Positions 4,787 through 62,880 of a stretch of 64,000 nt of DNA are shown here, in pieces. Every line of letters begins with the position of its first letter. Position 1 is the first letter of the stretch. A model generated the notes under the pieces. The model was given only the letters and a program-made list of their open reading frames with translations. It ran no database searches and was not told where the DNA came from. Source of the stretch: Ginglymostoma cirratum (taxonomy: Eukaryota). Made by a program: the position numbers and the translations under genes. The stretch is taken from positions 18,984,471 to 19,048,470 of the forward strand of contig JAHRHZ010000035.1 of the NCBI GenBank assembly GCA_024137785.1, read 5' to 3'.

Positions 4787-4824
4787 TCTGAAGAGTTTTC
4801 TGAAGTGAATAAGACAGATAAGGG

Positions 4825-12714: not shown

Positions 12715-13340
12715 AAGAGAGCACACAGAGAGCACATAGCTCGAAGTTCGTACACACACGTGGATACATATACAGCTACGCACAGAAGTACACACAGTTA
12801 CATACATGTACGCGTACACACACACGAGGCTACACACAGCCACCCACATACGCAGTTATACACAGGCAAAACTTCACACAGAACCACATCTACAGCTACA
12901 CTCAAGAGCTACACATGGCCACACACACCGAATATCAGACACACAAATCTATTTATATACAGCTACACGTACGACTATAGACACACATATCCACACAAGC
13001 ACACAAATCTACACACACACAGCTACACACGTTAACAACGTTACAGACACGCAAATTTACGCACTGCCACACACAGATAGCAACAGGCGCACAAATCTAC
13101 ATATATACAATTACACACACAGCTACAAGCACAAATCTACACTCATACAGCTACACAGAGACCTACACACACGAAGCTACAAACAGCTACACACACACCC
13201 ATACACACAGATACCCGCACACACACAACCACACATATCCATACATACACCCACACCCATACACACACACACACCCATACACACACGCACAAACCCATTC
13301 ACACACACACACGCAAACACGCACACAGCGCCAACACACC
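12715..13340. repeat. CA-rich degenerate tandem repeat / low-complexity tract
   Basis: Recurrent acagctacacac and cacaaatctac units decaying into (CA)n. Explains the H/T-rich spurious ORFs. Confidence 0.9.
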
Positions 13341-23400: not shown

Positions 23401-24410
23401 AAACCCTTTGGTTTCTTGCCCCTAAAACGGTTGACCTTATTGAGGATTTGTACAGGGCACAACGGAGGCTCTGAAGATATATAATTGAGATTAGAGATTT
23501 GAAGCCCGTGATGACCTGCACATTGTATCATGGTTTGACTGCAGCAATATCTCATCCACGAGGTGGGTGGGTTCTCCCTAACACGACGCTACCCTTTTGT
23601 AAAGCTGCTTCATTCAGTGTAATTAAACTAACCAGTAAAGGGAGTTAGAAACATAAGCGGCAGTGATCGGAACAACTGTTCAAGATTGGAACAATTTCAA
23701 GTCAAAGACAATTTACATGAACGTAAATTAAGGGGAAAAACAATTTGTGTTTATAGCTAAATTGCAACAGTGACTAAACAGTGTTTCATATGTGGTAAAA
23801 CACTTTGGGACGCTCTAAAGTAGTGAAAGGAGTTATATAAAAGCAATTTTTAAAACCTTTTAGCGTTATAACACATCAGTGGCGAGGGAGGTTTCCCTGC
23901 AAAGCCGGGTGTATTTATCTTAGCGCTCATCTTAACGCTCGTACAATTAACATGTCTGCGGCGCGTTTGTGTGGATTTACGGACAGAATGGGATTCTTAC
24001 ATTTGGAGGTTCTTGTGCGAAGGACTTTGTGATGGGGCTGCAGAATGTCCAGCATGTACGCTGCCCTTTTTTGTGCACCATCAATCTGCAATAAGGCGGC
24101 AGTGCACTTGTAACGTGCTTTTCAGAGCACGGCGGGATTCACCTGGACACTTTCTCCCCATATTCCATTCATGTAGTCCGCCCGCACTCACTGCTGTATA
24201 GATTAGGGTTTAAATGTCGAACAGATCGGAGGAAACACAATCCAGTGCTTCCTACAGTGTCGCAAAATCCAAGGTGGTTGTGTCTGTTAGCTAAACTCCT
24301 AAGGTTTATTCAAGTTACTAACCCATTCCTAGCAGTTTAAACAAAATCTAACCTTCTTTAGGAAAACAGACTTGGCCTTGGAGCAATGCAATCAGATGTC
24401 TTAGTTTAGT

Positions 24411-24615
24411 AAAACAAAGAACTGCGCATGCTGGAGAAGCGAATCAAACAGAAATGGAAATTGCTGGAGGAACTCGGCAGGTCTAGCAGCTTCTGTGGCG
24501 AGAAAACAGTTAATGTTTCGACTCCAGCGACTCTTGAACGGTTAACCTCCCGTTAACTGTTTCTCTCTCCACAGATGCTGCCAGACCTGCTGAGTTTCTC
24601 TAGCAATTTCTGTTC
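24411..24615. mobile_element. Older fold-back copy of a related PLE terminal-repeat family
   Basis: gaaattgctggaggaactcggcaggtctagcagcttctgtggcgaga is inverted against tctctccacagatgctgccagacctgctgagtttctctagcaatttc. A decayed hammerhead half lies on the minus strand at ~24512-24536. Confidence 0.65.
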
Positions 24616-25009
24616 TTATGTATTTCAATTGCTTAGTATGTTAGCCGTGCCGTGACATAAGCAAAGTCACGTTATACTGTAAAAACCGTTATCAAATAAC
24701 ATCCCTCAAAGTACGAGGGTGTCGCTATTATGCTAGAAACTGGGTGTGGTTGGCACGTTCTCATTCATCTTATCTCAGTAATAAAACTCACTCCTATCAG
24801 TGAAAAGAATGTGAGCATTATTAATATTTCCCCTCCTTGCAGGGTAAGTGTTACATGTTTCAACACCAGATCTCCAGTCGCCGGCTCTACGAGTCCATAA
24901 TGTTCCCTTAGCAACCAGGCTGGCACCAAGAAATTAAAGTATCCAATTAAAATGGTAACTAGAATGCCACGTGATGTCATCACACCACTCGGTGCTACAT
25001 CGTCCCTTC

Positions 25010-25415
25010 TCCTGAGAGCGAGGGATATGAGCCCTCCCTGAGAGATGTAGACCCTCACTGAGAGAGATGCAGACCCTGACTGAGAGAGATATTGCCCCCC
25101 ACAGTGAGAAATATAGACCCTCACAGAGAGGGATATAGACCCTCACTGAGAAAGAAAGATGTCCTCACTGAGACATATAAATCCTCACTGAGAGGTATAG
25201 ACTCCCACAGAGAGAAATTCGGGCTCTGACTGAGAGAGATATTGGCCCCCCCCCCCCCACTGAGAGTGATAGAGCCCTTCACTGAGAGAGGTCCTCTCTG
25301 AGACATACAGACCTTCAGTGAGAGATATTGCTTCCCCCCCCCCCCTCCCCGCCTACACACACACAGATATAGTGTTCCATAGAGAGATATAGGTCCTCGT
25401 TGAGAGAAATACAAG
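25010..25415. repeat. Degenerate minisatellite, ~22 bp unit (ccctcactgagagagat.taga)
   Basis: About 15 or more imperfect copies, interrupted by poly-C runs. Confidence 0.85.
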
Positions 25416-34400: not shown

Positions 34401-35587
34401 GCCTTTTGAAATTCCACCATGCGCTAGAATGTAATAATTTTGTTTGATATACTTTTCAATCAAATCCACGTGTGCCACTAATGATCATCAGATTACAACT
34501 GGCGACCGTGGAAAGGAACAGAGAGAGAGGGAACCTGAACATTGGAATATAGTGTTAAAGATTCATTTCCTAAAATTGTTATAAATATCAAATTAATTGC
34601 ACAATAACTCAAACAGTTTATGTCGAAGATAGTTGATGCAGATAACTGTACGTCCTAAGTTTCAGCACTGCAAGAGTTAACAGTTGAATTGTAACGACAG
34701 AGCTGATACTCGCCTGTAAGAGATGATTAATACCGTCATGGCATTTCTCACACAAATAAACACAAATCCATGTTAAATAGCGTCTGCAGGTTGTGTGTTA
34801 TAAACACCTTATTGCACAGTCTGGCCTTTGCTTCTCTTGGCTCGTCCTCCCAAACTATAGCCTTGTCTCTGAATCTCAAAACTTGGATTGTGGAGTTGCA
34901 GTAAACAAAGGACTGTTAATTACAAACAGGACAAAAATAAATTACAAAGTTGCAATGCAATAAGCAGAGCCGTCAACCTTTGGGAGAAGGCGTCCCTTAG
35001 TGGGATTTGTGATCAAAAAGAAATAGGGCAGTTACACATATGGAACTATTTTTTTTAAAATGTGCTGCATTTAAAATGTGTCATATTATTAAACCATAGG
35101 TTTGAGTCTCCACTTCAAATCAGTAAGTTTCGACGCGCATGATTATGTTGCGTAAATAGAAAAGAGGGAACGAGCCTCTTCTAGGAAGATACCATTCGGA
35201 ACCTGTAGGAAAGTAACATTTACAAACTGTAATGTAATCTTAACTTGGGGGGGAAGCACACCCCTGGGCCAATCCATAATCCAGCAAAGAGTATTGTCTT
35301 TTTCTGAAACCCTGATCAGGCCCCTAGTTTAAGAATCAAATGACGATTGCCAAATTCACCGAAGCAGGTATGCCTTCAGCTGTTTCTAATGGTATGAATT
35401 AATGTTGGGGGCATGCGGGACCAGATTTCTTTAATTACTTTTTCATTAGATGTCATGCACAAAAACTCACAATATTTCAGACCACCCACCATTAAAGCTT
35501 CATTTCCTGACATTTTATGATACATGACTTCATCTACTCATCTGAGACTTAATTGCATTTTCTGATGTATTGTTTCCTCTTTTTCAG

Positions 35588-35808
35588 CCGGTTTGGCACG
35601 AAGTGCGCCCGCTGTGGTAGGCAGATCTATGCCAGTGACTGGGTACGGAGAGCACGGGGTAATGCCTACCACCTGGCATGCTTTGCTTGTTTCTCCTGCA
35701 AGAGGCAGCTCTCCACAGGGGAGGAGTTTGGGCTGGTCGAAGAAAAAGTGCTGTGTAGGATCCACTATGATACCATGCTGGAAAACCTCAAGCAAGCAGC
35801 GGAGAATG
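35588..35808 (+). CDS. lhx6: Lhx6 coding exon 5: [18 protein letters not shown]...[20 protein letters not shown] (LIM2)
   Basis: Acceptor ctctttttcag|, donor G|gtaatt, 221 nt. Lies within ORF 35553-36053. Confidence 0.98.
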
Positions 35809-38800
35809 GTAATTGTGGTGAGATTGTTAACCTGATTGATTTATGTGCTGAATGTGCTTTCCTAACAACAGCAAAGAAACACAACACATACTGTTTATGT
35901 ATCTACCCAGTTAAATGCTACAGCATTTTTAACCAAGAGATGTTGTATTTTGGATTCACATTTCTTTGGGGTTTTTTTAAAGAAAGAATTGGAGTGCAGG
36001 TAAAATGTTCAATTTGTGAAATGTCACACCACATTCACTTGCAAATTCTTTAAACAAGTCAATCTAAACAAAATATTATAGAATGTGTGAAATGAAGGAG
36101 ATTTGGCTTCTGGAATGTTCTGGTGTATCTTGGTGATACTTGGTAAAGTCTGGCTACAATTGTGCTGGTCATTGAGTAGCATTTGATGTCTGGTTCAGAA
36201 TTCTGTGTATCTGGGTGTATTCTGTGTTGTACCTTGAATCAGAAATTGTTTGTGATAGGAATGTTTGGAAGGTGCCTTGGTGTGTTGGAGTTCTGTGCTT
36301 CAAACAGGAGTTAAGCTGGAACTGTATGTTCATGTGATATAAAAATGCCTACAATACAATGACTCTTTGGTTAGAGCTAATGTTGATTGTGTTTTTACAT
36401 CTTTTCTGCCCATTGCCTACCTTCCTTAATCCTGATTTTGCCCCTATATATCACCACATGCCTGGTGTAGGTGATCATTACATGTCTATCATCAATGGCA
36501 ATTCAGAACTGGACAACAGGACATAATTACATGTGGAAATATGTCAATACATTTTGTTTCCCTCTGACCGTTGAGTGCTTTGTGCCCATATGATACTTCA
36601 TTTAATAATTTGAGCAGGGAACACATTAAACTCATCTTCCTGAGTATTCACAGCCAGCAACAGGTCATAAAACTAAATGGTAAAGAGGCACTTATCCATT
36701 TATTTTGGTGTAACAACAATTCCTTTCTTTCAGTTGTGCAAGGTGGGCATTGCTAGCTGGCCAGCATTTATTGCCCATACCCAATTGCCCTTCAGAAAGT
36801 GGCAGTGAACTGCCTTCCTGAACTGCTGCAATCCATGTGCTGTAGGTTGACCCACAATGCCCCTTAGGGAGGGAATTTGGGTGTCTTCTTAAGTATGTAA
36901 CACTCTCTGCATTTTAATGGCCTACACCTGTCATTCTTATGATTTGTTGAATTTACATTAATTATCTAGTTAAAATTATAGACAGTTTTCATTCTGAGGA
37001 TCTACAACCACCTGTAACTGAGATTGCTGTAAACATATCTTGCAGAGATTTTGCTTGTGGTGTCAAAGGCTTAGAATGGAGTTGATAGGATATGTAGAAA
37101 TAAACTATTTCCTCTGTCGGGGGAGTCCATACACAGAGGTATAACTTTTAATTAATGCCAGGCATTCGGTGGTGATATTGAGAAACAATTGTGCTTTTAC
37201 ATGGGAGTGTAAATTGGAATAGTCACTTCCAGAAAGCTGTTAAATGTAGGGGTCAAAAAACGTAACTACTGTGATTGTTAGATTTTTGTTTGGTATGGAG
37301 TCAAGATGGGTAAATGGAGTTAAAGTACATATTGGTCAGGATTTTATTAAATTGGTTCTAACAAGTATATGCCTATCTTCCTATGTTCCATGCAATTCCA
37401 ATTGAGACAGTAGAATTAAGGTACAGCACAGTGACAATCTGCTTTGGCTGGATAATTGAGTGGTTTGTTTGAAAATAACAATAAATTGTTCATCATTATA
37501 ATTGCTTTCCTTTGTGTTTTGTACATCATGACAACATTTCCAAGAAGCAGTAGCACTTAATTACCCTGAAATAATATTTCACAGCTGCAAACATCTACTA
37601 TTATTCCAACAAATCTATTGGTAAATAAGTGACTTATTGTAGCAGTTATATTAAAAGTATATTAGCATAGATATGGTGAAACAGACACGGTCTGTTTAGC
37701 AATGAACATTAAGCCCACAATGATCATCTTGGAGAATTTTATCAGAAAGGCACTATAAAAGTTTTTACAAGCATCTTGAATGTTATCTTAGCTTCCTGCT
37801 CTGCTGTACTATTCTGTTTGGTTACCAATCCATGCTGATTCTGTTGAAGAATAATCCAATCCCCTGATACCTGCATTTTTGTTTTCAATGTTATAGAGTT
37901 CCCTTTTTGAAGGCTTCTATTAAATCTGTATCCGCCATCAGGCGATGCATTTCAAATCCTAACCACTGTACAAAAGCAAACGTTGGAAATCTGAAATTAA
38001 ACCTGAAAATACTAGAAATACTCAGTGAGCCAAGCAGCATCTGATGCAAGGTCATGTAACTGAAATGTTCATGTTGTCTTATTCCACAGATGCTGTCTGA
38101 CCTATTTCCAGCATTTTCTGTTTTTATTTCTAACCACCTGTTCCATTTTAAACTGAAGCTTTTCCTCATGGCCTGTTTTTTTTTCGTCAACCACCTTAAA
38201 TCAGTGCCCTCTGGGTATTGACCATTTGAAAATTGGAAACAGTTTCTCTTTAATTACTGTATCTAAACTAGTTATGTTTTAAGCACCACCTCTCAAATCT
38301 CCTCTTAGTCTTTGTTAAAAAAATTGCAGCGTCTACAATATATCTAATGTAACAGTATTCCCTCCTTTCTGAAACAATTCTGATAAATCCTAACAAACCC
38401 TTTTTCCTGAAGTGTGGCTTTTCAGAAGTGGACACAATATCCTGGCTGGAGGCAAGATGATGATTTATAAAAGTTTAACTTCCCAGCTTGTCCAGAAATG
38501 TTATCTCATATTAGTAATGTTTCTTATTTTGTAGTGGGGCCTAGGGTTGATTGCCTTAGCCAGCAAAATAACGTGTAGTGGGTGGAATCCCAATGTTTAC
38601 TTTGAATGGTGCACTGGTACTCTGGCCTTTAATCAGAGGCTATGCTGGGAAATCAGTCGCATCAATATACTTCATTGAAGATAAAGATGCTTTCATGTTG
38701 CAGCTCTCATGTCCACTTATGTTGGTCTTACAAAATAATTGGAAATTAGAATATGCAATCATTTTAATCTTAATGGTTATAATACACTGTTAAGATTACA

Positions 38801-39117
38801 CTATCCTTGAACTATAATAAGAATCACTCACAACTTTGCCAATGGGAAAGGACTGCACTTCCAACAGCACCTTTAGTAGCAACTTATTAGCTCATAGTTT
38901 CTGTCTCCGTTATGATAGTATCGTATTATTTTGTTATCTATTTTTCACACACAATAAATGACCAATGATAAAACTAACAATAACTGGTTAGCCGTGCAAC
39001 AATGTGCATTTATATAGTGGCTGTAACATAATAAAACATTCTTAAGCGGAGCACGGGGCAAATAAAGTTAAATTAACACAAGGAGATGATGGGACAAATG
39101 ATGCAGTCTTTTAAAGG

Positions 39118-39659
39118 GGTTAAAATTGTATCAGAGATAAAAGGTACTGCAGATGCTGGAGAATCCGAGATAACAAGCATGGGGCTGGATGAACACAGCA
39201 GGTCAAGCAGCATNNNNNNNNNNNNNNNNNNNNNNNNNNNNNNNNNNNNNNNNNNNNNNNNNNNNNNNNNNNNNNNNNNNNNNNNNNNNNNNNNNNNNNN
39301 NNNNNNNNNNNNNNNNNNNNNNNNNNNNNNNNNNNNNNNNNNNNNNNNNNNNNNNNNNNNNNNNNNNNNNNNNNNNNNNNNNNNNNNNNNNNNNNNNNNN
39401 NNNNNNNNNNNNNNNNNNNNNNNNNNNNNNNNNNNNNNNNNNNNNNNNNNNNNNNNNNNNNNNNNNNNNNNNNNNNNNNNNNNNNNNNNNNNNNNNNNNN
39501 NNNNNNNNNNNNNNNNNNNNNNNNNNNNNNNNNNNNNNNNNNNNNNNNNNNNNNNNNNNNNNNNNNNNNNNNNNNNNNNNNNNNNNNNNNNNNNNNNNNN
39601 NNNNNNNNNNNNNATGCTGCTTGACCTGCTGTGTTCATCCAGCCCCATGCTTGTTATCT
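39118..39659. mobile_element. Fold-back Penelope-like insertion (family A) spanning a 400-N gap (39214-39613)
   Basis: Inverted arms on either side of the gap. TSD cagtcttttaaagg at 39104-39117 and 39660-39673. Confidence 0.88.
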
Positions 39660-41389
39660 CAGTCTTTTAAAGGAATGTTTTTAAGAGGGAGAAGTGGAAC
39701 GGTTTTGGAAGAGAATTCCACAGCTTAGGTTCTATAGCTAAAGGCAGGGTAGTTAACAGTACCGCAAGAAGAATTAGGGATGTACAAGAAGCCAAATCAG
39801 GAGAAACACATAAATCTGAGGGTTGTTGAGCTAAAGAGATTAGAGATGGAGAAGAGGAGATGACATGAATGAATTTGAAAACAAAGATGAGAATTTAAAA
39901 GTTGAAGTATTGGAAAATGGGGGGCCAGTGTGCACCAGTGAGCTCAGGTACAATTGTTGGCCAGAACTTCATATAAGTTTATAAGCAGCAGAGTTTTCAA
40001 TGTGCTCAGGTTTACGGAGGGTTCAAGCTGAGAGGCTAACTGAGAGAGATTTGGAATAGCCAAGATTAGAGTTAACAATTACATGAAGGGATTCAGCTGC
40101 AATTGAACTGAGGGAGGGTTGGAGATGAGCAATGATTTGGAGGTAGAGATTGGTGGTCTTACTAATGGAGAGGATATGAAGTCTAGTCAGGGTATCTGAC
40201 AGTTAATGAACATTTGTTTCCTGTACTGTAAAACCAGCAAAAATGAATAAAGGTGCAAAAAATAAAGAGAATGCCCACCTGTTTAGACAGCATCTAGGGG
40301 AAGAGGCAGAGTCAATAATTCATTCTTCAAGGAAAAGATCTTCATGACAATATGATTTCCCCGTGAGTCTCAAGTTTAAAATATTAAACTCATTGAAATG
40401 AATGAGAATCCTCACCACCAGAAGGGTGATGGCAGAGTTAGGTAGAAATATGAGACATAGCGTTGTGGTCCCTCATCTTGATTCTCAGGCCCTTCCATTG
40501 GGTTACGGGCATTTGTTCAAATAGAGTGAGGTCTTCATTAATCAATGCAAATCAAGAACTTATTGCAAATTTTACTGCCTTCTGAACAGCATTGTGATTG
40601 TGCTTAATAAAACCTGCCAAGAGATAGTCAGTGCTCTTCTATTTAATGCTAGAATTAGTTTTGAGGGAGCAGAACAAGCAAGGCAGTGTTCTTCCAAGTT
40701 CTGCAGGAATAATGCAGGATTCACCTTTATTCTTGTCTGGGTTGGCCTCTGAGTTGTCAAGTATTATGTCATGATGTTGTTCACTACGTGTATGTTGATA
40801 AAGTATGGTTCTAGAAACGAATGGGGCCTCTGCTCAGAAATGTTGAGCACCTAAGTAATTGCTACTCCACTTTGATAACATATCCCTAAACACTCATGCT
40901 TACAAAAATCTGTCAATCTCTTTCCAAAAATTTACAATTGACTCTCCAGCCCCAACCATGTATTGAAGGAAGAATTCCAGATTTCCATAATCTCTGTGGG
41001 GAAGGAGTGTTTCTGTGGAACTTATCACATTTCAGGTGCTCCACATTTGCTGGGGTTATGAAGCTGCAGACCAAACTTGAGCAGTGTACAATTTTGTAGG
41101 ACTACCATTTGTAGGCCATTGATCCAAAAAATGCAGTAGAGACCCAAAGCCCAGGCTTGCTTTGGTCTCCCTTTCACTTACAGTGTGACCATGTGAAACT
41201 CAGAGCACAAGCTGGGGCATTTGAAAAAACATATTTTTGCGATAGAGCTTCAGGAAGAACTAGTCTTGTTTCAATGACTAAAATTAACAATAACCCCCTG
41301 AGTTGGAAATAGAATTGCTTTTCATGGAATGCAGCTGTAATATTGCACTTAATTCACTTGACATGAATACATTGTTTTTCTGATGAGAC

Positions 41390-47190: not shown

Positions 47191-49833
47191 CTTGTTATAT
47201 TCGTTTAAAAAAAAAGACTTATTCCATGTTTTTTTAAGTAGTTTCGTTCAATGAGTCAGCTTGCTGAATAGGCCCGTTCACTGCCGTGTGCCTGTGGTGC
47301 AATTATGTAGTAAGATTGAAAAAGCAGCAATTTTAGGAACAAGGAACAGGGACAGGCCATTGAACTTATCAGACCTATTCTGCCATTGAAGTAGATCCAT
47401 TATTGATTTGTGTCTTACCTGTCTTGACCCGTAATTCTTAGTTTGTTGCTGTATAGAAGAATTATCAACATTTAGGGGTTTGACATTTTCAACTAATTTG
47501 CAGCTTTCTTGGGGGGAAGAGAGTTCAAAATTTCCATTACATGTTGTGTGAAGTGCGTTCTAACATAATCATGGTTAGCAGTGGATGCCCCTTGATTCAA
47601 GAATGGTACCTATGCAGGGTTGTGTATTCCTGCTACGGGTCATTATCTAACATCATCCTGAATGGCTTAGGTCCAAGTTTAAAGCTATGCTCCATTGTTC
47701 TGAATTCACCTGCCTACAGAAATAGTTTATCTCTATCTCTGCTTTCAATTCCTTCTGATCATTCTAAATATCTCAATTAGTTAAAGGGAATAGAAGAGTA
47801 GACTCTGCTATCTCCTAATGTAATGCCTTTTAGTCTCATTGTAAGTTTATGAATCAGGGCTGCATCCTTACATGATAGCACAGGTAATTAACCAGTTTTC
47901 AGGAGGCGGTCCATTAAGTTGTGTTAAGTAAAGACGATTTTTCAGTGAGAATCAGGTGAGAAATTGTAAAGCTCAGACCGGTTGATTTACTGAGTAGTTT
48001 TAAATTGGTTATGAACAAAAAGTTTAAAAATATATAATTATAAGACCCTGGGGAGGCTGTGTGATTATGAGCTAAGCTGGGAAAATGGTAAGGCTGCATC
48101 TCAAGCATAAGGTAGTGTTGCAGAAATATTATGAAGATCTGTTGTTTTTGTCCAAGACTAAATAGCCACAGAAGCGTAAGCTTAGGTGCAGGGCACTCAG
48201 TCTCTAAAATCTGCTTGTCATTCTTTTTGATCATAGCTAATCTGTACTAAACTTCACTTCCCCTGTGTTTGTTCCATATGGCTTGATGTCATTACCTGAC
48301 AAGAAATAGATCCAACTGTGTCTTGTAAATTTCAATTGACCCAGCGTCCAGCTTTGGGTTGGGGAATGAGGTTGGGCACTCACAGAGCATGCCAGATTTT
48401 AACTACCTTTCTTGTAAATTGGTTTCACTTCTGATTTCCATTCCTGATTTCAATCCTCAATCTCTTGTCTCACTAATTTCAAGATTGTGCCCTCTTGTTG
48501 TAGTTTTCTCTACCAGAGGAAATTGTTTTATTTTAGTATCTCTTTCTGTAACTTTAAACAGAAACATATAGAGGGTAGTAAACTAAATGAAAGTAGACCA
48601 ATGGATAGTCAGCAGCTATTCCTCAGTTTGAAGGTGAGGTCTTTTCAGGGCCATGGATTTCTGCAGTGGGTCTTCATGTCACGGTACAGGCTGGTTTTCA
48701 ACCTGTAGATCTTTGGGTACATGGGAAAGGATGTCCCATGAGGTCATGTGATCCAGAGTGCAGGATTTGTTTTGTTTCCTTCTCTCTCACTGTTCTGCCT
48801 CAATTAATTGTAGAGATTAGCAGTATGTACCATCTACAGGATGCACTTCAGCAATTAACTGACAGCACCTTCCAAACCTGTGACCACTTCCATTTAGAAG
48901 GACAAGGGCAGCAAATACAAGGCAACACCACCAACTGCAAGTTCCCCTCCAAGCCACTCACATCCAGAATTGGAAATATATTGCCATTTCTTTACTTTTA
49001 CCAGGTCACAAAGTCCCAGGACTCCATTTTTGGCAGCGCTATGGATATATCTGCACCACATGGACTGCAGAAGTTCAAGCAGGTGGCTCGCCCGATTCTC
49101 CTTGGCAATAAATGGTGTCAGCAATGAACACATCCGTTAACATCCAGAGCATTCAGTGTTCTTTGTGTCAGTGATGAGGTGTTGTTGTGGAGTAGCAGAC
49201 AGGTATTGAAGATACATTGAGCACGTTCTGGAGCGGTGAGCTAGATGAGGATGTATTAAAACGGTGCCTTCTTTGACTCAACGGAGCAGGGTCTGAACTA
49301 AGTATGTGTCCTACAAAAACGGCAGATTCTCCCGAAACCAAGTCCAGCACTAAATAATACCAAGTGCGTGTATTTTTTTCTGTGACTCTACGCGACAACC
49401 AATTCTATTATCGCATCGACAGGAGAATTTTAATGACCGCACAAAATATGTTTTCTATTTGTTTAAAAAGAAGACAATCTGACCTTTTGAAGGCCGGTGA
49501 TATAAAGTGTGTGCTTGTATCTGAAGGTGACCAGGGCTGATGAAAATGTGGAACTAGTGAGGATCAGAAGCCGGCAGAGATCAGGCATTATGAAATAAAA
49601 CTTTCCTCTGATCGATGCCAGTTGGTTGAGAATATTGTTCTGTTGAGTGCAGTTCAAGGCTCAGTTCAAATGCAGAATTTGATGCTGTCCCTTCCTTTGA
49701 GCCAGGAGCCCTAGGTTCAAGCGCTACCTGCCAAAAGGCGTGTAATAACACCTCTCAACAGGATGGTTAAAAATATCTGGAACTTGACATCTGACTGGTC
49801 AGATAGCAGCAAAAGCAGTTGGATTTTGTTGGC

Positions 49834-50430
49834 GATAACAAGCATGGGGCTGGATGAACACAGCAGGTCAAGCAGCATCATAGGAGCAGGAAAACTCGAC
49901 GTTTCGGGCCTAAACCCTTCATCAGAAAACGTCAGCTTTCCTGCTCCTNNNNNNNNNNNNNNNNNNNNNNNNNNNNNNNNNNNNNNNNNNNNNNNNNNNN
50001 NNNNNNNNNNNNNNNNNNNNNNNNNNNNNNNNNNNNNNNNNNNNNNNNNNNNNNNNNNNNNNNNNNNNNNNNNNNNNNNNNNNNNNNNNNNNNNNNNNNN
50101 NNNNNNNNNNNNNNNNNNNNNNNNNNNNNNNNNNNNNNNNNNNNNNNNNNNNNNNNNNNNNNNNNNNNNNNNNNNNNNNNNNNNNNNNNNNNNNNNNNNN
50201 NNNNNNNNNNNNNNNNNNNNNNNNNNNNNNNNNNNNNNNNNNNNNNNNNNNNNNNNNNNNNNNNNNNNNNNNNNNNNNNNNNNNNNNNNNNNNNNNNNNN
50301 NNNNNNNNNNNNNNNNNNNNNNNNNNNNNNNNNNNNNNNNNNNNNNNNTGATGCTGCTTGACCTGCTGTGTTCATCCAGCCCCATGCTTGTTATCTCGGA
50401 TTCTCCAGCATCTGCAGTACCTTTTATCTC
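49834..50430. mobile_element. Fold-back Penelope-like insertion (family A) spanning a 400-N gap (49949-50348), minus-strand hammerhead core at 49898-49925
   Basis: Inverted arms. TSD tggattttgttggc at 49820-49833 and 50431-50444. Confidence 0.9.
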
Positions 50431-50759
50431 TGGATTTTGTTGGCATTCATTTGGCCGGCTGGTTAAACACCAAAGCAATGGGGAATCTGATGAGTCAAGC
50501 TCCTTTGCATCGCAAAAAGTGGGTGTGACACAGGGAGCAGGGTAAAAGATGAAAAGCGGTCTGTGGTGCACAGCTATACCCGTACACCCCAATATCGTCT
50601 CCAATTTACAGCTTTCTTTCAGTCCAGCTTCAAACTGGATGAGGAGTCACTCTAGATTCGAAACGTTAACTCTGTTTCTCCTCACACCTGCTGAATTTTC
50701 TGAATAGAAACCGAAAGAATGGCGGATGCTGTAAATCAGAAACAAAAACAGAAATTGCT

Positions 50760-50891
50760 TCAGAGATAGTAGGAACTGCAGATGCTGGAGAATCTGAGAT
50801 AACAAGGTGTAGAGCTGGATGAACACAGCAGGCCAAGCAGCATCAGAGGAGCAGGAAAGCTGACGTTTCGGGCCTAGACCCTTCTTCAGAA
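50760..50891 (-). mobile_element. Solo family-B PLE terminal repeat nested in an older related element (~50705-51100)
   Basis: Identical to 4654-4786. Flanked by agaaattgct / agaattgct. The host resumes at ~50893 and has its own hammerhead-like core at 50947-50976. Confidence 0.85.
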
Positions 50892-51295
50892 AGAATTGCT
50901 AGAAGCTCATCACAATTGGCAGCATCTGTGGAGAAAAATCAGAATTAATGTTTCGGGTCCAGGAACCCTTCCTCAGAACTGATGCTGGCTAGGAAAATGT
51001 TGCTTCATTTGTAGACGATAGGGTGAGGGGAGGGGGTAAGGAGTAAACAAGGGGTGGGCATAGAGCCCAGAGACAGAGAAGAGCATTTGGGCAGTTTTCT
51101 GTTTCAAGCTGACAGGCGCATTCAGCGCATTGCAGATTTATAACCTCAGATGTAAATGGATGGGGGAAACAACATGAGAATTTCAGAGAAAGTAGGAATG
51201 GAGCAGGGTTTTCTGAAAGTTCGGTGGCACAGTCACTTTCTGAAGTGAGGACCATTGAATGCCTTGTGGTTTATTCGGACTGGTTTGTGGCTGTC

Positions 51296-51507
51296 AGTAG
51301 GCCAAGCAGGATCAGAGGAGCAGGAAGGCTGACGTTTCGGGCCTAGACCCTTCATCAGAAATGATGATGAATGATCATTTCTGAAGAAGGGTCTAGGGCC
51401 GAGACATCAGCTTTCCTGCTCCTCTGATGCTGCTTGGTCTGCTGTGTTCATCCAGCTCTACGCCTGGTTATCTCAGATTCTCCAGCATCTGCAGTTCCTG
51501 CTATCTC
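51296..51507. mobile_element. Fold-back family-B PLE insertion with two inverted hammerhead cores (51331-51358 minus, intact; 51381-51408 plus, GAAA>GAGA)
   Basis: Inverted arms around a short atgatgatgaatgatcat spacer. Imperfect TSD tgtggctgtc (51286-51295) / tgtagctgtc (51508-51517). Confidence 0.85.
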
Positions 51508-52055
51508 TGTAGCTGTCTGTGTTGGCTGGGCTTCTGCAATCAGCATGGAGTGTTTCAATGCACATTGCATGGTGAGAGTGGTCCGTGCTCTTGTATGAAG
51601 CGACGTTGGAACCTGCTTTCCTTCTCAATCGCAGTTTAATGTATTGAGGCTGCAGTGTTACAGATTTCTTCATGTGGGTTAGTACACGGTTCTTCATTCC
51701 TCAGTATGGTTTAAGAAGGTAAAAAGATTGACAACAAATGACAGGGAAGAATTTCTGTGCCCACTGACAGCAAACTGAACACTTAGCTGAACGGAAATCG
51801 AGACCCACAACGCGTTAGAAACAGGAACAATTCTTACTCCATTCACCTGCATGTTACTTATTTCTGCCTGTTTTGTATTAGGCCGCCTGCGGAATTATAA
51901 CACTATCCTTGGGGAATATGAACTTTCATCCTGACTAAAGCCTCCTCAAATGTTCCCGGTTTATGTTGTTAAAAAATCAATATTTTTTTTAAAAAAACAT
52001 TATTTTCAATTGATGGAAACGTCAATCGAGGTAAAGAGATTTGAACAGAAGGAAG

Positions 52056-52876
52056 AGATAAAAGGTACTGCAGATGCTGGAGGATCCGAGATAACAAGCA
52101 TGGGGCTGGATGAACACAGCAGGTCAAGCAGCATCATAGGAGCAGGAAAACTTGACGTTTCGGGCCTAAACCCTTCATCAGAAATGGGGGAGGGGAAGAG
52201 GGTTCTGAAATAAATAGGGAGAGAGGGGGAGGCGGATAGAGGAGAGGATAGGTGGAGAGGAGGCGGATAAGTCGAAGAGGCGGGGATGGAGCCAGTAAAG
52301 GTGAGTGTAGGCAACTCCCCCTCTCATTCCTCAGATGACATGTCCATCCTGGGCCTCCTGCAATGCCACAGTGATGCCACCCGAAGGCTGCAGGATATCA
52401 TATCAGCAAATCATATTCAGCCTGGGAACCCTGCAGCCCAATGGCATCAATGTGGATTTCACAAGCTTCAAAATCTCCCCTCCCCCAACCGCATCCCAAA
52501 ACCAGCCCAGCTCATCTCCACCTCCCTAACCTGTTTTTCCTCTCACCTCAAGCCACGCCCCCATCTCCTATCTACTAACATCATCCCGCCCCCTTGACCT
52601 GTCCGTCCTCCCTGGACTGACCTATCTCCTCCTCACCCCCCTACCTACACTCACCTTTACTGGCTCCATCCCCGCCTCTTCGACTTGTCTGCCTCCTCTC
52701 CACCTATCCTCTCCTTTATCCATCCTCTATCCGCCTCCCCCTCTCTCCCTATTTATTTCAGAACCCTCTTCCCGTCCCCCATTTCTGATGAAGGGTTTAG
52801 GCCCGAAACGTCAAGTTTTCCTGCTCCTATGATGCTGCTTGACCTGCTGTGTTCATCCAGCCCCATGCTTGTTATC
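52056..52876 (+). mobile_element. 5'-truncated Penelope-like retroelement with inverted terminal repeat and GIY-YIG endonuclease C-terminal remnant
   Basis: 52312-52480 encodes NSPSHSSDDMSILGLLQCHSDATRRLQ / QQIIFSLGTLQPNGINVDFTSF (frameshifted), which matches the PLE GIY-YIG C-terminus (HFN...H....R...E...I..L.TL.P.GLN). Arms 52090-52311 and 52644-52876 are inverted. 15-bp TSD ttgaacagaaggaag at 52041-52055 and 52877-52891. Confidence 0.92.
52781..52816 (+). ncRNA. Minimal hammerhead ribozyme motif, sense to the Lhx6 pre-mRNA (inverted twin at 52154-52181)
   Basis: attt-CTGATGA-a-GGGTttagGCCC-GAAAC-GTC-aagt. Predicted cleavage after C52812. Confidence 0.75.
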
Positions 52877-53639
52877 TTGAACAGAAGGAAGTTAGTTGAT
52901 AGCGAAGGTTAAGGAATAAGCTGTAACATGATGAATTTGGGTATCCCTCAATTATCTGATTGACTTTGACTTTGAGCATGTATCTCAAAGTCCGAGCCTA
53001 TGTTTCTATCCTGATTTCACTTACACGGCAGAGCGTCCATTTCAAAGCAACCATTCCTCTCTGTAACCAGAAAGTCAAATTGAAGTTTTCGCTCTGCTCT
53101 AACTCACCTTCGCCTCTGAGGGAATTAGGTCTGTGACTCTTAATAAATGGCGAGACGCTGGCATTCCTTAGTGTCGCTGCCTTGTGTTCGATTCATAATT
53201 TATTGTGCCTGTCTACTTCATATTTCTACTTTATATGAATTAATTGCAACAATATAAATCATTTATGTCAATAAACCAAGCTTTACATGAACCTTTTTTC
53301 TACAATATCATATTGCAATAATTAAATCATGTGTTTAAACAGCTAATGTGTTTACACAATGTCAACCATGCTTGGTTTATACAGAAATAATATTCCTTTT
53401 TTAAAAGGTGCAAAACAAACAGGTTAGAACAAACTCCTTGTATTTTTCCTCCATTCAGACCCTTGCTACAGAGCAGTGGCTGTAACACTTTGCAAAACGC
53501 AGTATAAGTACAAGTAACTTTTCAGCATTTTAAACGTTGGTTTGAAAATGTAATGAAGTGAGACTATCAGAAGTGTGATTTTAAACTTGAAATGATGACA
53601 ATCTGTGGTTTGGCTGATTGCAACAGCATCATGTGAAAA

Positions 53640-55182: not shown

Positions 55183-55283
55183 GTAATGGGCTAACCTTGG
55201 AGGGAGCTGTACCTTCAGACCAAGACAGTCATCCGAAACCAGCCAAGAGAGCACGGACGTCATTCACAGCAGAGCAATTACAG
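55183..55283 (+). CDS. lhx6: Lhx6 coding exon 6: [33 protein letters not shown] (linker and homeodomain start)
   Basis: Acceptor tttag|, donor CAG|gtagca, 101 nt. Confidence 0.97.
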
Positions 55284-56037
55284 GTAGCATTGCGGCAGGG
55301 ATCCCCGTCATTCTAACAACATGACAATCCATTTTATGATCAGGCACTTCCCATTCATATTGCTGTTTCTATTTCTGAACGCTACTTTTTGAATACCACC
55401 ACTGCCTGTTGAGAGGAGCATGAGACAACTAAACAGTCCAATAAAACTTTTATCTCTCAAAGTCATTCATTAAATATTGTAGTGCTTTCCTCATTAGATC
55501 ACATCATTATTTTAACTTTGTACTTTGTGTTGTTCAACTGTATCTGTCATCATTCTGCCCACTCTATTCATTTATTAATTTCCTATATAAGATAACAAGT
55601 CTTTATGCTAAAACAGAGACCTGAAGCGCTTGACACAGTTGCTGTATTGAAAGACATATTCCTGGCCAGCAAGTTATCGTTAGAGTGAGACAGTAGTGAA
55701 GAATTATTTATAAATACTGTTTAGTTTTGAAAGAACCATGGTTTACTAAAGGGACACCCAACTCCAGATGATCGAAATCAAAGAGTCTCATTTGTATGCA
55801 CATTGATCAGAATTGCTCTCTTAGGCTATTTCAAATTTTGGATTCTAAACTATCATAGCAACATCTTGTTACAAAATGTAGATCACATGACAGTTGCTAC
55901 ATTTTTATTACCTTGTCAATGACCATCTTTACCTTTTTATTAGATAACAATTGATGTCAAGTGAGAGACACTGTCTTACAAACTTTATATTGTACTCTGC
56001 CTTTGCTGACAGTACTTTTCACACTATCTGTGTACAG

Positions 56038-56133
56038 GTGATGCAGGCACAGTTTGCACAAGACAATAATCCTGATGCACAAACACTTCAGAAGCTTGCA
56101 GACATGACTGGCTTGAGCAGACGTGTTATCCAG
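56038..56133 (+). CDS. lhx6: Lhx6 coding exon 7: [32 protein letters not shown] (homeodomain)
   Basis: Acceptor tgtacag|, donor CAG|gtatga, 96 nt. Confidence 0.98.
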
Positions 56134-57129
56134 GTATGAATATGTTCACATAATGAAGAGGGTACAGATATTTGTGAATTAAGTAGCTGCAGAAATGACA
56201 CACCACTGAATACCTCATATCAAATAATAAGCATTTTTCTTTTGGAGCAATCACTCATTCAAAACAATTAGATGAAATGAAATGATTGTTATTGACCATT
56301 TTTATTTGGATACTCCTCTTGTGAATGCCAACAATAGGTGGAGCAATAAGTGCACATGGACAGGAACAGAGTGTTGCACGACCGAGTGAAAAATTGGCAG
56401 CAACAGCTACCTGTCACAGATATGGCAATGGCATCAGAATTGTACTGGGATTATACGCACTGGTTCTGATCATTCACACTTCCGGAAGATTATGCCTCAT
56501 TGAGGCACCTCTTCTCTAAGCAGCCATTCTCTCCTCTGCCCCCACCCCAGACTGAATTGACACAAGCTACTGGGTGGCAGTGTGAGAAGTGGCCGAGACA
56601 GCATGAGAGATTGGTCATTGCTTTTCTGTGGCAGTCCACACATGCACTGGTGCTGACATCACTGCACAGCTCATGCAGACATGAATCCTGCATCTATCTC
56701 CACCTGCTGACATCACTGGCCCCGTCTGCTCATGGTTTGATGACTATTGTATCGACCATTTTATTAGCCATTTTAGTATTCAGGTAATTACTGTACTTTT
56801 GTGGCTCTATGAACGAGCAGCGTTATTGATGCAGCCAGTTCCCAGAATTTATTACATTCTATCATTTTAGCTGCTGGGGCTCGTTTTCATTACAGGAGAC
56901 ATTGAACGTATACTTTAATAGTCCTTTCCATGGAAACTTCCATAACAAGAGGACAATTAAGTGGCTGGCAGCATGGTAGGTGAGTTCATGCCACGTTCCC
57001 TCCTTCACCTTGACTAATTCTATGGGGGAAAGGTTCATGGACAGCCATCCTGGCCCATCATCAATTATGGCTCTTGAATGGACAATTAATGCTTGATTCA
57101 TGTTTTCCAACCGAAAGACCACGACCCTA

Positions 57130-58210
57130 ACCTTTAGACTATTTCCTCTGCTTGAGCCTCCCCAAACTGGAAAAATAGCTATGCTCAATTATTCTACCTA
57201 TTGGATTTAATTTCTTGAAAGCATTGATCAAATCACACTTTAAACTCCTTAAAATCCAGAGAACACCATCCTAACTTGAGTAATCTCTCTACATACTTTA
57301 ACTGTTGGACTTAAAATATTATTCTTGTAAATCTGTGCTGCACAACCTCCTGGGTGTGGTGCTTAGTCTGCTCACAGTGCTCCAAGTTTGGACCAAGCAC
57401 GACCATCTATAATTTTAATTTAACTTCTGCCTTGCTAGTTAGTTAGTCAGCCTAATTATTTTCTGTGCCTCGTTCATAACATTTGATCAACCATGTATAT
57501 GGACCCCAAGCTCTTTTCGTTGTTAGATTTTCATAATTTTAGGAAATTATTCTGTTTTTAGGTGCAAAGTGGATGGCTTCACATTTATTTACATTGAAAT
57601 CTATTTATTATGTATTTTGCCCATTCATTCAATTTATTATCTCAATGTATTAGCTCCCAACTACTCTGCTGAAGATGCCATCTATCTTCATTGTACTAGC
57701 AAACTTGGATATGTAGGTTTTTAACCCATCATATAAGCTATTAATAAACTTATAAATAATTGAGGCCCCAACATGGACCATTATTGTTCAACACCAGTTA
57801 CACCCACCTAATTAGAATATCTACCCATTATCCCTATTCTGTCTCCTGCTGATCATACAATTTCCCAACAGGATTGATAATTTGCCTTCAATTTCATGAG
57901 CTTCAAATTTAGCTGATCACATCTTATGAGAGATATTATCAAATGCCTTCTGGAAATGCATTGTTTAAATAACATCCATAGACATTCTTCAAACACTATT
58001 TTAGTGACCACTTAAAAAATTCCATCAGTTTGTCAGTTGTAATCCACCGTTTATAAATTCATGCTGGCTTTGTTTGAGCAGCTAAACAGTTTCAAGGTGT
58101 TCAGTCAGTCTATCTTTAATTGTAAACCCCAACATTTCCTGACAACAGATACTTTATTAACTGGGCAAAAATTCCATGATTTCCCCTCTCACCTTTCTTA
58201 AATAGCAGAG
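57130..58210 (-). mobile_element. Old CR1-type LINE RT remnant
   Basis: Minus-strand FQKAFD (ttatcaaatgccttctggaa on plus) and ISKFAS (tagcaaacttggatat) motifs, heavily decayed. Confidence 0.65.
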
Positions 58211-59689
58211 TGGCGTAGGCAGGGTGAGATTTTGGAAGTGTCACTGTATCACCAAATAGTTCAATGTAAATTCTCCTCCTCAAAAACTTGCATCAATATC
58301 TTCCATGATATTATACCAACTAACAATTTGTTTAGTAAAATCATGAGATTCACAATGTAAATCAGCTAACATCATCTCTGAAATCAGAATTGATTTAAAA
58401 TGAAAATATAATGTTAAATTTGTCATTTCAAACTAGATTGTAATGCAACATCTATTTGATGGTTTTACTATGAAACATAATCCTTATTGTACAGAGTCCA
58501 TTAATATGAGTTGAATGAAAGACATGAGTAATATAAATGTTCTGGCTTCATATTAAGTATGACTTGTGATTCATACTCCTAAAATGCAACAAATATTCTA
58601 AATATGGCTATAGTATTGGAATGATCTCACTCAATCCGCATATATTGGCATGGATTTACAGAGTACCTGACTTGGCAGTAGTGTTATATACATCTTTAAG
58701 ATGTGGATCATTATAACTCAGACATGCCTTTGGTACTCATGTTATTCAGTTCACAGTTGCTCAGTGTGATGTCTTCTATCACCTGATTCCTGTCCTGTGC
58801 AATCTATATACACCCAAGATATGACACCACTTACTATTGCTCCACCTCTGTGTATTTTATCTTTCTAGGGATTTTTAAAAACAGTTTTCCATCAGTATTA
58901 ACATTTTCAGATTATATGGAATGTTATGTAAGTGAAAACATGTTTCATTGGAGTATAATGTAAACTGATCAGTGTTGGAAAATTCCATGTGTTAAGCAAT
59001 CTGAGTTCAGTTACCTTACAGTCCTGGATGAACTAAGAATCAAAGCAGGTTCCAGTGCAATGAGTTCATCCTTGTTTGTTGTCTGGTTCTGAATTCTGGC
59101 CACATTTGATTCATGTGGTCCATGACTGTTCTTCTACACCTAAATTGTCCAGTATTCCCTAAACATATTGTGTTCCTCTTAGGAAGTGTTTTCTTTCCAT
59201 CCAGTTCATAGAGTTGGTGAGCTGCAAGTTGATTTATGTCAAATTCAGACAGATCTTCCAAGGTGACAAATATTGAAAAGGAAAATTTCAGCTTGGAAGA
59301 AATTACACAACTCCAGATTCCGAGAGTAACTTTCATCACCTTACAGAATTTGGCTTTCATGATGAAAGTGATGGAACACAGACACACAATGGCAGCCAAG
59401 ATGCAGGGAGGAGTTCCAATGTAATATGCTTGTTGATATCAGTGTATCTGTTTTCCATATGTCTGACAATAATTGCCACCTGGTTTGTGTAGCAACAATA
59501 TTTTCCTAGAATTATAATGGAGTAATATTGAGGTATTGATTTGATGGGGAATTTAAATCCAAACATTTTATTCTAAATATTATTTCCTGCTATCCAAATC
59601 TGAATTTCGGCTGTGGATTTGAAGTGATAATTTTTTAGATTCACAAATCTAACTTTCAGATTCATTTTTTTAATGGTGCAATGTCCCTG

Positions 59690-60020
59690 TAGCTGAAGTA
59701 TGTATTTGCAGCAGGTCATAACCCAGTGGCCAGTTCACTGGACGGGAGGCCTTTGGGTATGTGGGCATCATTTGCTCAATGAACGTAGCCAAATCAGTGC
59801 AAATGTTATTGACTTCATGAAGAGTGTATGGTGATGGAATTAACATGCTCTGGAACCTCCTAAGTTGGTGACCATCTCCTACCCTGATATGCCCACATAT
59901 TTGCAGCAACAAGTTGATTTCCAACTCTTCTGCATCCATCTATCCAGTGCTAAACACTGGATTCACAAGAAGGACATGTGCATTGAGCTACAGTGGTCAG
60001 CCTGGGTATACCTAATTTAC
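59690..60020 (-). mobile_element. Possible second Harbinger transposase fragment
   Basis: Minus strand shows GIPR...caatgcacatgt (compare GFP.V.G.IDCTHV) and later ATFIEQ (compare TR..IEQ). Weak and frameshifted. Confidence 0.35.
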
Positions 60021-60395
60021 TGTTTGCCCAGCTGGAGATCAGAATTGTATGTTACATGGATGTACAAATTTATAGCTCCCATTGGTTCTGCTTGTAGTGG
60101 TGCATGATAGAATCATCCAACACTGAAGGAGGCTTTTCAAACCTTTTGAGTCTGCACTGGTCCTCCTTATTATGCATAAATTCTTATCAATTGCTTTGAG
60201 TGTACACCTAAGTTGTGTTTGTATTTGTAATCTAACTAATTTATTTATAACTCAATGGGGTATTTTAGATTTGTTCTTAAGTTTGTGTGAACTTTGTAGT
60301 TTTATGCAGCGGAAAAGATTCCTGATCGTTCGTTCAGCTCAATTGAAGGTTTTATCATGGGGTACCATGATGGAATGTGTCTGTTGCTATTGTAG

Positions 60396-60570
60396 GTCTG
60401 GTTTCAAAACTGCAGAGCACGACACAAAAAGCATACGCCACAACATGCAGTAGGTCAACCAGGTCCCCCTCGGTCGCGCCTTCCTCCGTCCCTATCAGAG
60501 GACATTCATTACCAAGCTTTCAGTCACCATGAGCGGACCAGGATGGTGGCACTTCATGGTTATGTGGAAA
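60396..60570 (+). CDS. lhx6: Lhx6 coding exon 8: [58 protein letters not shown]
   Basis: Acceptor ttgtag|, donor A|gtaagt, 175 nt. Contains the WFQN recognition helix. Confidence 0.97.
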
Positions 60571-61884: not shown

Positions 61885-62880
61885 GCATAGTCATAGAACT
61901 GTACAGTATGGAAAGTTGGTTCCAACTTTGTTCCAACGCAATGATGCCGACCAGATATCCTAAATTAAGCTAGTCCCATTTGCCAGCATTTGGCTCACAT
62001 CCCTCTTAAACCCTTCCTATTCATTATACCCATCCAGATGCTTTTTAAATGTTGTAATTGTACCAGCCTCTGGCCACTTTCTTTGGCATCTCATTCCATA
62101 CATGCAGACCTTGGCTATTCATCCTATCCATGTCCCTCATGATCTTATAAATTTCTATAAGGTGACCCTGCAGCCTCCGATGCTGCAGGGAAAATACCCT
62201 AACCTATTCAGCCTCTCCCTATAGCTCAAACACTCCAACCCTGGCAACATCCTTGTAAATCTGTTCTGAACTCTGTCAAATTTCACACTATCCTTCCTAT
62301 AGCTGTGAGACCAGAAATGAACGCAGTATTCCAAAAGTGACCTAACCAATGTCCTGTACCAGCTCAACATGGTCTCCCAACTCCTATACTCTATGTACTG
62401 ACCAATAAAGGATCTATGAACTTGCACTCCAAGGTCTTTTTGTTCAGTAACACACCCCAGGACCTGCCCATTAAGTGTATAAGTCCTGCTCTGATTCTCT
62501 ACGAATTTTCTGCATTTCATAGGACAGCCCTTTTATTCCATAAAATCAATCTGTTTTACTTTGATCTCCTCAACCAAGGACATATATACTCCCACTAGAG
62601 GGAATGCAATGTGTATACAATAATCCTGATATAAACTTACTGAAGTCCTCCATAATTGCAGCAAGAGCTCTTTGGTGTTATACGCCAGTGTCCTTGCAAT
62701 AAAAGCTGGAATACCAACTTTCCACCTAATTGCTTTCTGTGCATATATGTTGATTTTGTGCTTCATGTGCAAGGACACCCAAGTCACTATGACTACCAAC
62801 ATTAGTCTTTTGTGAATTAGTCTCCCTTCTTTTAAAATCATTAACTGTGATTATCTTCTCCCTGTACCAACGATATCACG
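61885..62880 (-). mobile_element. CR1 (HER1-like) LINE 3' portion plus an adjacent older CR1 fragment in the last intron
   Basis: ORF 62155-62520: YTLNGQVLGCVTEQKDLGVQVHRS...IEYRSWETMLSWYRTLVRSLLEYCVHFWSHSYRKD...RVQNRFTRMLPGLECLSYRERLNRLG, the canonical CR1 ORF2 C-terminus. Confidence 0.9.

Follow-up and report, generated by a model that had tools for sequence, protein, structure and literature searches.

What are the short terminal repeats that lie scattered through a 64-kb stretch of the genome of the shark Ginglymostoma cirratum, and what is the hammerhead ribozyme motif that they share doing in them? The stretch, hereafter the window, comprises 64,000 nucleotides (GenBank assembly GCA_024137785.1, contig JAHRHZ010000035.1, positions 18,984,471 to 19,048,470, forward strand). 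An original prediction, made from the letters alone, held that repeats at 49820-52891 derive from Penelope-like elements (PLEs), that they carry minimal hammerhead ribozymes (min-HHRs), probably dependent on dimers, and that the short copies may form a retrozyme-like or SINE-like (short interspersed nuclear element) system. The reading at which we arrived, with a probability of roughly 70%, is that the units are 5'-truncated insertions of a Neptune-type PLE of cartilaginous fish; that the motif is the minimal type I hammerhead of PLEs is close to certain.

A BLAST comparison of the main element with the window resolved the units into arms of a single terminal repeat (pseudo-long terminal repeat, or pLTR). 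The main insertion, at 52041-52891, is free of gaps. It opens with a 15-bp target-site duplication (52041-52055) and an inverted, 5'-truncated arm, A3, made up of the pLTR and a 34-nucleotide tail (52056-52311, minus strand, 94% identical to 52644-52877); the core of this arm (52154-52181, minus strand) was recovered by pattern, structure descriptor and covariance model, and its long end lies 98 nucleotides past the predicted cleavage site. There follow the C-terminal end of an open reading frame (ORF) for a PLE reverse transcriptase (RT) and GIY-YIG protein (52313-52529, plus strand, with a frameshift near 52394), a 256-nucleotide spacer after the stop at 52529, and then, on the sense strand and within the pLTR 3' of the ORF, the core of arm A4 (52785-52812), with CUGAUGA, an extra A, a 4-bp helix II, GAAA, the ACGU palindrome and predicted cleavage after the C at 52812. 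The pLTR continues from the core for 64 nucleotides to a short, tail-less end (52813-52876, plus strand), a segment that aligns with related loci L003, L005 and L007 described below, and the right duplication (52877-52891) closes the insertion. Inverted arms, a one-sided tail and target duplications of 14-15 bp all belong to the usual anatomy of PLEs; a truncated copy in inverted orientation, a tail of 30-40 bp at one end and assembly trouble are reported as typical of these elements (Craig et al. 2021; PMC3846280).

Two other insertions of family A are also fold-backs. One, at 49820-50444, has 14-bp duplications at 49820 and 50431 and consists of a short arm (49834-49928, minus strand) whose core A2 (49898-49925) lies 3 nucleotides from the start of the arm, counted upstream from C3, the C of CUGA; a partial arm from 49927 on the plus strand; a run of 400 N; and a tailed end reaching 50430. 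The other, at 39104-39673, likewise has 14-bp duplications, and its core region is hidden by a 400-N run. All three family-A fold-backs with both flanks visible therefore carry duplications (15, 14 and 14 bp), and none of 4,975 random flank pairs shared 14 bp or more. The remaining family-A arm, A1 (1-222, plus strand, core 82-109), is cut by the window edge and has the longest 3' end, 113 nucleotides past the cleavage site. Subfamily B is represented by two solo arms, B1 (4655-4787, minus strand, core 4756-4783) and B2 (50761-50892, minus strand, core 50862-50889), and by a short fold-back of B3 (51295-51363, minus strand, intact core 51331-51358) and B4 (51376-51509, plus strand, broken core 51381-51408, covariance model E 0.17). 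Beyond B1 come two tiny fragments of the start of the core, on the sense strand (4779-4812), which resemble aborted second arms. The two N runs, 39214-39613 and 49949-50348, are each exactly 400 long and each hide part of a family-A fold-back; exact reverse complements border the first, and the second has 20 nucleotides of B type on its left and A-type sequence on its far side, which suggests that the assembly breaks at palindromes.

A and B agree at 82 of 93 aligned nucleotides (about 88%) and are better described as subfamilies than as the two families of the original prediction, whose claim of recent activity holds for both: A1, A3 and A4 are identical over 92 nucleotides, A3 and A4 being one insertion event, and B1 equals B2 over 132 of 132 nucleotides with the same ends. 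All ORF sequence in the window belongs to subfamily A, which has long, ORF-bearing arms as well as a short arm; all four B arms are short.

The seven core positions listed beforehand (82-109+, 4756-4783-, 49898-49925-, 50862-50889-, 51331-51358-, 52154-52181- and 52785-52812+) proved exact. Each matched the 28-nucleotide pattern CUGA(U/A)GA-A-GGGU(U/C)UAG-GCCC-GAAA-CGUC with no mismatch in a search of the window, and none of 100 shuffles matched it even with three mismatches. A structure descriptor gave seven matches in the window against 0-1 in ten block shuffles; a looser one also picked up two matches that look like chance, with a core mismatch, and the older variant at 50947-50976(-). The claim that every young terminal repeat has the core stands for seven arms and is too strong for the eighth, since the core at 51381-51408(+) has three mismatches, including a change of GAAA to GAGA and a broken helix III palindrome. 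Catalytic positions C3-U4-G5-A6-N7-G8-A9, G12-A13-A14, A15.1-U16.1 and H17 are thus intact in seven of the eight young arms, and the extra nucleotide between 9 and 10.1, the G10.1-C11.1 pair and a paired helix II are all present. As predicted, helix III is reduced in all seven intact cores to the self-complementary ACGU, with no loop 3. Helix I, on which the original prediction is silent, is 4 bp in family A (AUUU/AAGU, all A-U or G-U), shrinks to 3 bp in the copy at 49898-49925, and is only 2 bp in subfamily B (UU/AG, as U-A and U-G), so that the lengths seen sit at the weakest end of the published min-HHR range of 2-6 bp.

The check originally proposed for the motif, a scan with the Rfam hammerhead models, detected none of these cores: there was no match to E 10 in the window, including a 141-nucleotide stretch, and none to E 1 in the seven related loci. 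Because the models fail on every core, we treat the result as a false negative, and Rfam scans evidently miss this minimal hammerhead class entirely. Matches to Rfam microRNA families in the window were set aside, as they merely reflect the fold-backs.

Evidence that an RT-GIY-YIG element supplied these termini, as had been foreseen, comes from the ORF remnant. Its translation (52313-52526, with X at the frameshift) matched 11 of 105 candidates in a protein search, being 89% identical to whale-shark protein P0002 (63 of 71 amino acids) and 82% to zebra-shark protein P0003; bamboo shark and ray proteins stand at 54-71% and many others near 50%. A Pfam scan of the 71-residue remnant returned no families, and a tblastn search of the window with ten PLE proteins located ORF remnants nowhere but in 52184-52817. 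The evidence within the window is thus the last 71 codons, and the RT and GIY-YIG domains are known by way of P0002, which matches RVT_1 (E 9e-5, below the cut-off) and GIY-YIG (E 9e-5, above the cut-off). P0002 and P0003 also have a cysteine linker (CxxxxCxxC), and a YIDD motif is visible. A CX2-5CxxC linker marks the Neptune and Nematis clades (Craig 2021); judged by this motif alone, which Nematis shares, the shark element would be of the Neptune type. P0003 runs into the terminal repeat and reads LMKGLRPKRQ across the core, where the window reads LMKGLGPKRQ, indirect evidence that the motif may be present in a second shark; a motif search of 130 proteins for such a reading returned only P0003 and one unrelated PASAV match. 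An ATG inside the core was rejected as the ORF start, being absent in B1 and B2 and followed by a stop after 13 codons in A.

To place the motif among more distant elements, we scanned an alignment of ten proteins against a genome contig collection and obtained seven related loci (L001 to L007), whose ORFs are 47-53% identical at the amino acid level. In six of the seven the motif lies 106-130 nucleotides after the end of the protein match, and the seventh (L006) ends before the end of the ORF. Inspection showed that four of the six motif-bearing relatives form one family with a C at core position 4, which the strict descriptor misses; this family (L001:2615, L002:4119, L003:1991 and L005:2062) has TATATAAA at -39. 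An exact 29-nucleotide pattern had no match in the same collection. The downstream pLTR region and the tail also align between the shark and its relatives. L001 holds in addition a second, unrelated min-HHR at 4739-4771, with a 6-bp helix II and a 5-bp helix I, beside a (TA)n run. The contigs with L001 to L007 are of animal PLE type and occur inside two bacterial genome bins, which suggests that these bins are contaminated with host DNA.

In an alignment of three window rows and four locus rows, 88.9% of cells are paired, five of nine pairs show two-sided changes, and helices I and II both covary; no shuffle of 500 reached the covariation score, a control that kinship among the rows can inflate. 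Within the window alone the signal is weak, since 27 of 500 shuffles reached the percentage paired and 4 of 500 the score, and helix I is 60% paired. Over nine lineages (C and E, two older termini with core indels, were left out), majority conservation is 0.96 in the core, against 0.47 upstream and 0.54 downstream, although part of this contrast is built in because the rows were registered on the core; helix II keeps 34 of 36 pairs. A core no better conserved than its flanks, the outcome named beforehand as speaking against a hammerhead, is thus not what was observed. A covariance model built from four non-window loci ranked the seven cores first (E 4e-7 to 4e-5), followed by older terminus D, arm B4 and older terminus F, with no other match to E 2.

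The window motif fits every position of the published min-HHR consensus, NNN CUGANGAH G..C GAAAN NU H (Cervera and de la Pena 2014, PMC4209133 Fig S3). Taken with the covarying helices and the conserved core, this fit upholds the identity first proposed. Shared with those motifs are CUGANGA plus an extra base, G10.1-C11.1, GAAA, the palindromic 15.2-16.2, the missing loop 3 and a short helix I, as well as a mostly dispersed, single occurrence, with opposite-strand pairs 100-700 bp apart there and 631 and 50 bp apart here. Subfamily B comes close to the Acropora 'Neptune' row of Fig S3. Unlike the published motifs, the shark helix I lacks a G-C pair, and the 4-bp helix II is at the short end. 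The shark units further resemble Neptune-clade endonuclease-bearing (EN+) PLEs in the RT, cysteine linker and C-terminal GIY-YIG of their closest proteins, and in the pLTR, inverted truncated copy, one-sided tail and target duplication, the last being 14-15 bp here versus 8-10 bp in rotifer PLEs (PMC3846280).

Where the copies begin is more informative about their origin. Five of the eight young arms (four of six insertions) stop matching the long copy 3-5 nucleotides upstream of C3, and none of the eight begins at the base after GUC, so that this genomic proxy points away from RNA ends at the cut site; the 39-kb insertion, with its cores hidden, was left out of the count. Under random truncation, a rough and post hoc binomial P for the clustering is 3e-4 to 6e-8 by arm and 9e-4 to 1e-6 by insertion. 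Long A copies have TATTTA at -35 (52750-52755, plus strand), a TATA-like word and putative promoter, and an initiator-like word with A at -4 (52779-52785, plus strand), a putative start site matched to the initiator (Inr) consensus, whose AUUU is the 5' strand of helix I. Either TATATAAA or TTTAAA occurs at -36 to -39 in L001, L002, L003, L005 and L007, and three of four lineages with the motif after the ORF and preserved upstream sequence have a TATA-like word at -35 to -39. The initiator-like word recurs at -4 in B3, B4 and D and at -6 in B1, and is missing at -4 from A2, B2, F and G; per position, the TATA-like and initiator-like words have background frequencies of 0.4% and 1.3%. The TATA-like word found upstream in long copies is missing from the short arms. 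The TATA-like word at 52750-52761 also overlaps a pyrimidine tract ending in CAG, which resembles a 3' splice site about 24 nucleotides above the core; in D. virilis, helix I is where an intron ends. A TATA/Inr pair has been noted in a rotifer pLTR (PMC3846280).

Given that five of eight arms start just upstream of the core and none at the cut site, the short copies may be run-off cDNAs of uncleaved transcripts. Transcription from the pLTR promoter would start about 4 nucleotides upstream of the core, and the hammerhead would therefore be the first element of the RNA. The PLE protein would nick the target DNA and prime reverse transcription at either of two internal sites, about 64 and 98-113 nucleotides past the cleavage site. 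Priming in the 5' pLTR would run off the RNA end after about 95-135 nucleotides and yield the short copies, priming in a 3' pLTR would yield long arms with ORF sequence, and fold-backs would come from a second priming or a switch of template. Because the copies keep the whole core, their templates would have been uncleaved. The hammerhead itself, formed as a dimer through the ACGU palindrome, would probably be slow and protein-assisted and would act, if at all, on transcripts of tandem master elements; the dispersed copies in the window are most likely inert. On the simplest reading, the short copies are by-products of the autonomous element. We regard this start-site and run-off origin as an evenly balanced proposition, and hold more tentatively, at somewhat less than even odds, the fuller version in which a Neptune-type promoter starts the transcript at the 5' strand of helix I and the shark copies of 95-135 nucleotides are integrated 'strong-stop'-like run-off cDNAs of uncleaved RNA. 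A partial precedent is the anole Poseidon element PAc, in which RT starts at two internal sites and uncleaved RNA is the dominant substrate (PMC11167929). PAc also has its hammerhead in the pLTR, two 3' end points separated by a tail and, as surmised for the shark element, an uncleaved template for insertion, but it belongs to a different clade, and its ORF starts at helix II, unlike the shark element, whose core ATG fails as a start.

Several observations weigh against this account, besides the cautions on covariation and conservation given above. The edge count is small (four of six insertions), and the TATA-like and initiator-like words were chosen after inspection. L004 has no TATA-like word, and in D. 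virilis Penelope is driven by an internal promoter that lacks a TATA box (PMC2377424). Subfamily B has no long reference copy in the window, its insertions show no target duplication above chance (none for B1, 7 bp for B2, 6 bp for B3/B4), and B3 and B4 share seven upstream nucleotides, more than a start at -4 predicts. The arms at 49927(+) and about 24549(+) begin inside helix III, neither at the predicted start nor at the cut site. A protein search of the in-frame pLTR for the ORF start gave no match among 95 candidates. Predicted folds also speak against an active ribozyme: the hammerhead dimer lies 12 kcal/mol above two monomers for A4 and 16-21 for A2 and B, far above alternative dimers as well, and short RNAs from -4 to the long end are predicted to fold without helix II.

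The 5' ends might instead have been set by the act of copying, with RT stalling or snapping back at the upstream pyrimidine tract or at short palindromes rather than running off at a transcription start. The long C-rich tract directly upstream in family A and the small palindromes at the B1 and B3/B4 junctions, of a kind known from PLEs (PMC3846280), would fit; yet three of the eight arms read through the tract, and the edge lies where the spacing of the TATA-like and Inr-like words would put it, which leaves this origin rather unlikely in our estimation. A separate proposal, put forward originally, takes the short copies as an independent non-autonomous SINE-like or retrozyme element that is transcribed from short masters and depends on the PLE protein for its mobility. 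In its favour, B1 and B2 match exactly as solo copies of 132 nucleotides with the same ends, all B arms are short, one chondrichthyan genome is reported to hold retrozymes derived from PLEs (bioRxiv 10.64898/2026.07.22.740005), and the pLTRs by themselves are enough, in cis, for mobilisation (PMC3846280); an internal promoter like that of D. virilis Penelope (PMC2377424) would allow it. Against it, no tandem array made of these units appears among 15 TRF rows, the one close pair on a single strand consists of B2 inside the decayed D, family A gives short and long arms alike, and the short copies have lost the upstream TATA-like word. Metazoan non-LTR retrozymes (PMC7229834; bioRxiv 10.64898/2026.07.22.740005) share with the shark copies a non-coding, PLE-related nature and a type I hammerhead, but they form head-to-tail arrays, the classical ones with canonical hammerheads and circular RNAs, whereas the shark copies are solo or head-to-head and minimal. 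We therefore do not retain a separate system and judge it clearly improbable, although subfamily B, present only as short arms, could be an independent SINE.

Whether the hammerhead still works is a different matter, and here the alternative is that it is vestigial in these shark subfamilies, kept because it overlaps a promoter or protein-binding region of the pLTR and not for cleavage. In relatives helix I has 3-6 bp and includes G-C pairs, whereas in B it is down to 2 bp and in A it is made up wholly of A-U or G-U pairs; pairing of CUGAUG with CGUCAG can mask the core; no arm starts at the cut site; hammerhead mutants of the anole PLE left insertion in vitro unaffected (PMC11167929); and one of nine Xenopus dimers cleaved (bioRxiv 10.64898/2026.07.22.740005). 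The catalytic positions are nevertheless all intact in both young subfamilies while the flanks have diverged by about 12%, pairing in helix II survives the changes seen across shark lineages, and published min-HHRs include forms with a helix I of 2-3 bp (PMC4209133). We consider vestigiality unlikely, though a serious contender. To the idea that the motif is a chance resemblance spread by repeat copying, or an assembly artefact, we give practically no credence: the missing Rfam match may be cited for it, as may the two N runs and an arm of mixed A/B type next to a gap, which suggest local assembly trouble, but the motif recurs at the same position in distant relatives and shows compensatory changes there, which already contradicts the idea, and the insertion at 52041-52891 is gap-free with target duplications.

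Lacking a loop 3, helix III has to be built from two molecules, and helix I must then be intermolecular as well; the expected need for a dimer follows directly from the zero-loop ACGU, and the dimer model for PLE min-HHRs is that of PMC4209133. Measurable dimer cleavage by family A would have just short of an even chance and by subfamily B would be unlikely; self-cleavage by the window copies themselves appears doubtful because helix I is 2 bp in B and the fold-backs bury the core. The predicted gap between dimer and monomers in three relatives is 1-12 kcal/mol, all such energies coming from a folding model without tertiary contacts. In several copies the predicted monomer pairs CUGAUG with CGUCAG, and in the fold-backs the opposite arm is predicted to pair with the whole core, whichever strand is considered, so that such copies would be silent in host pre-mRNA. 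Among experimental cases, a Schistosoma test case had no monomer activity and low dimer activity (PMC4209133), the anole hammerhead needed its protein in order to cleave and gave no reads at the cut site (PMC11167929), and dimer cleavage in Lunse et al. 2017 is cited in a review (PMC6765202). Helix II with its loop is nearly self-complementary (52790-52804 and the other cores), and the near-palindromic GGGUCUAGGCCC gives the best predicted dimers; intermolecular helix II pairing could possibly be a docking aid or a misfolding trap. A helix-II-swapped dimer, which does not build helix III, was set aside as a likely misfold.

The motif class (2014), its PLE host and the dimer model are already published, and for that reason the basic finding only extends a list. 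A search of PMC4209133 Table S1 and Fig S3 with shark and skate terms found no cartilaginous fish among the species named in the parts covered, and hammerhead-bearing, PLE-derived tandem repeats are reported in one chondrichthyan (bioRxiv 10.64898/2026.07.22.740005). Our literature search found no description of these shark PLE min-HHR families, on which the supplements of that preprint may bear, and no paper stating the start-site and run-off reading, in a search that reached few subscription papers; the 5'-edge pattern is possibly the new part. What PLE hammerheads do is still described as unclear (Craig et al. 2021), and the value of the window lies in its material: young, dense families, with eight young arms in 64 kb and 5' ends clustered at the hammerhead edge. 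If the run-off reading is true, the 5' ends of copies across shark genomes preserve a record that sets the start site against the cleavage site, and would provide a test of whether transposition templates are ever cut by PLE hammerheads in vivo.

Older related termini, C to G, are scattered through the window. D (50893-50980, minus strand) has a variant core at 50947-50976 with a 5-bp helix II and helix III decayed to ACAU (covariance model E 0.005); the young B2 sits inside it on the same strand (50761-50985), which places two hammerhead motifs 87 nucleotides apart. E is a degenerate core (50635-50667, plus strand) with helix II GAGUC/GAUUC, not recovered by covariance model R1. F (9661-9768, plus strand) has a decayed core from 9667 (E 0.24), and C, a fold-back at 24404-24625, and G (38041-38127, plus strand) are related to the main element by BLAST and have decayed cores.

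The repeats at 49.8-52.9 kb are probably intronic, because they are flanked on the plus strand by a LIM-domain exon (35604) and homeodomain exons (55254-60399). These belong to a LIM-homeobox gene (exons at 35553-35810, 55240-55290, 56030-56100 and 60395-60450), which we take to resemble Lhx6. PLE expansion in whale-shark introns has been reported (10.1101/443036). Two other repeats in the window, a 22-bp minisatellite at 25020-25242 and a degenerate (CA)-rich repeat at 12981-13327, are unrelated to the hammerhead repeats. An open frame at 62155-62532 on the minus strand resembles the C-terminal part of ORF2 of a CR1-type long interspersed nuclear element (LINE).

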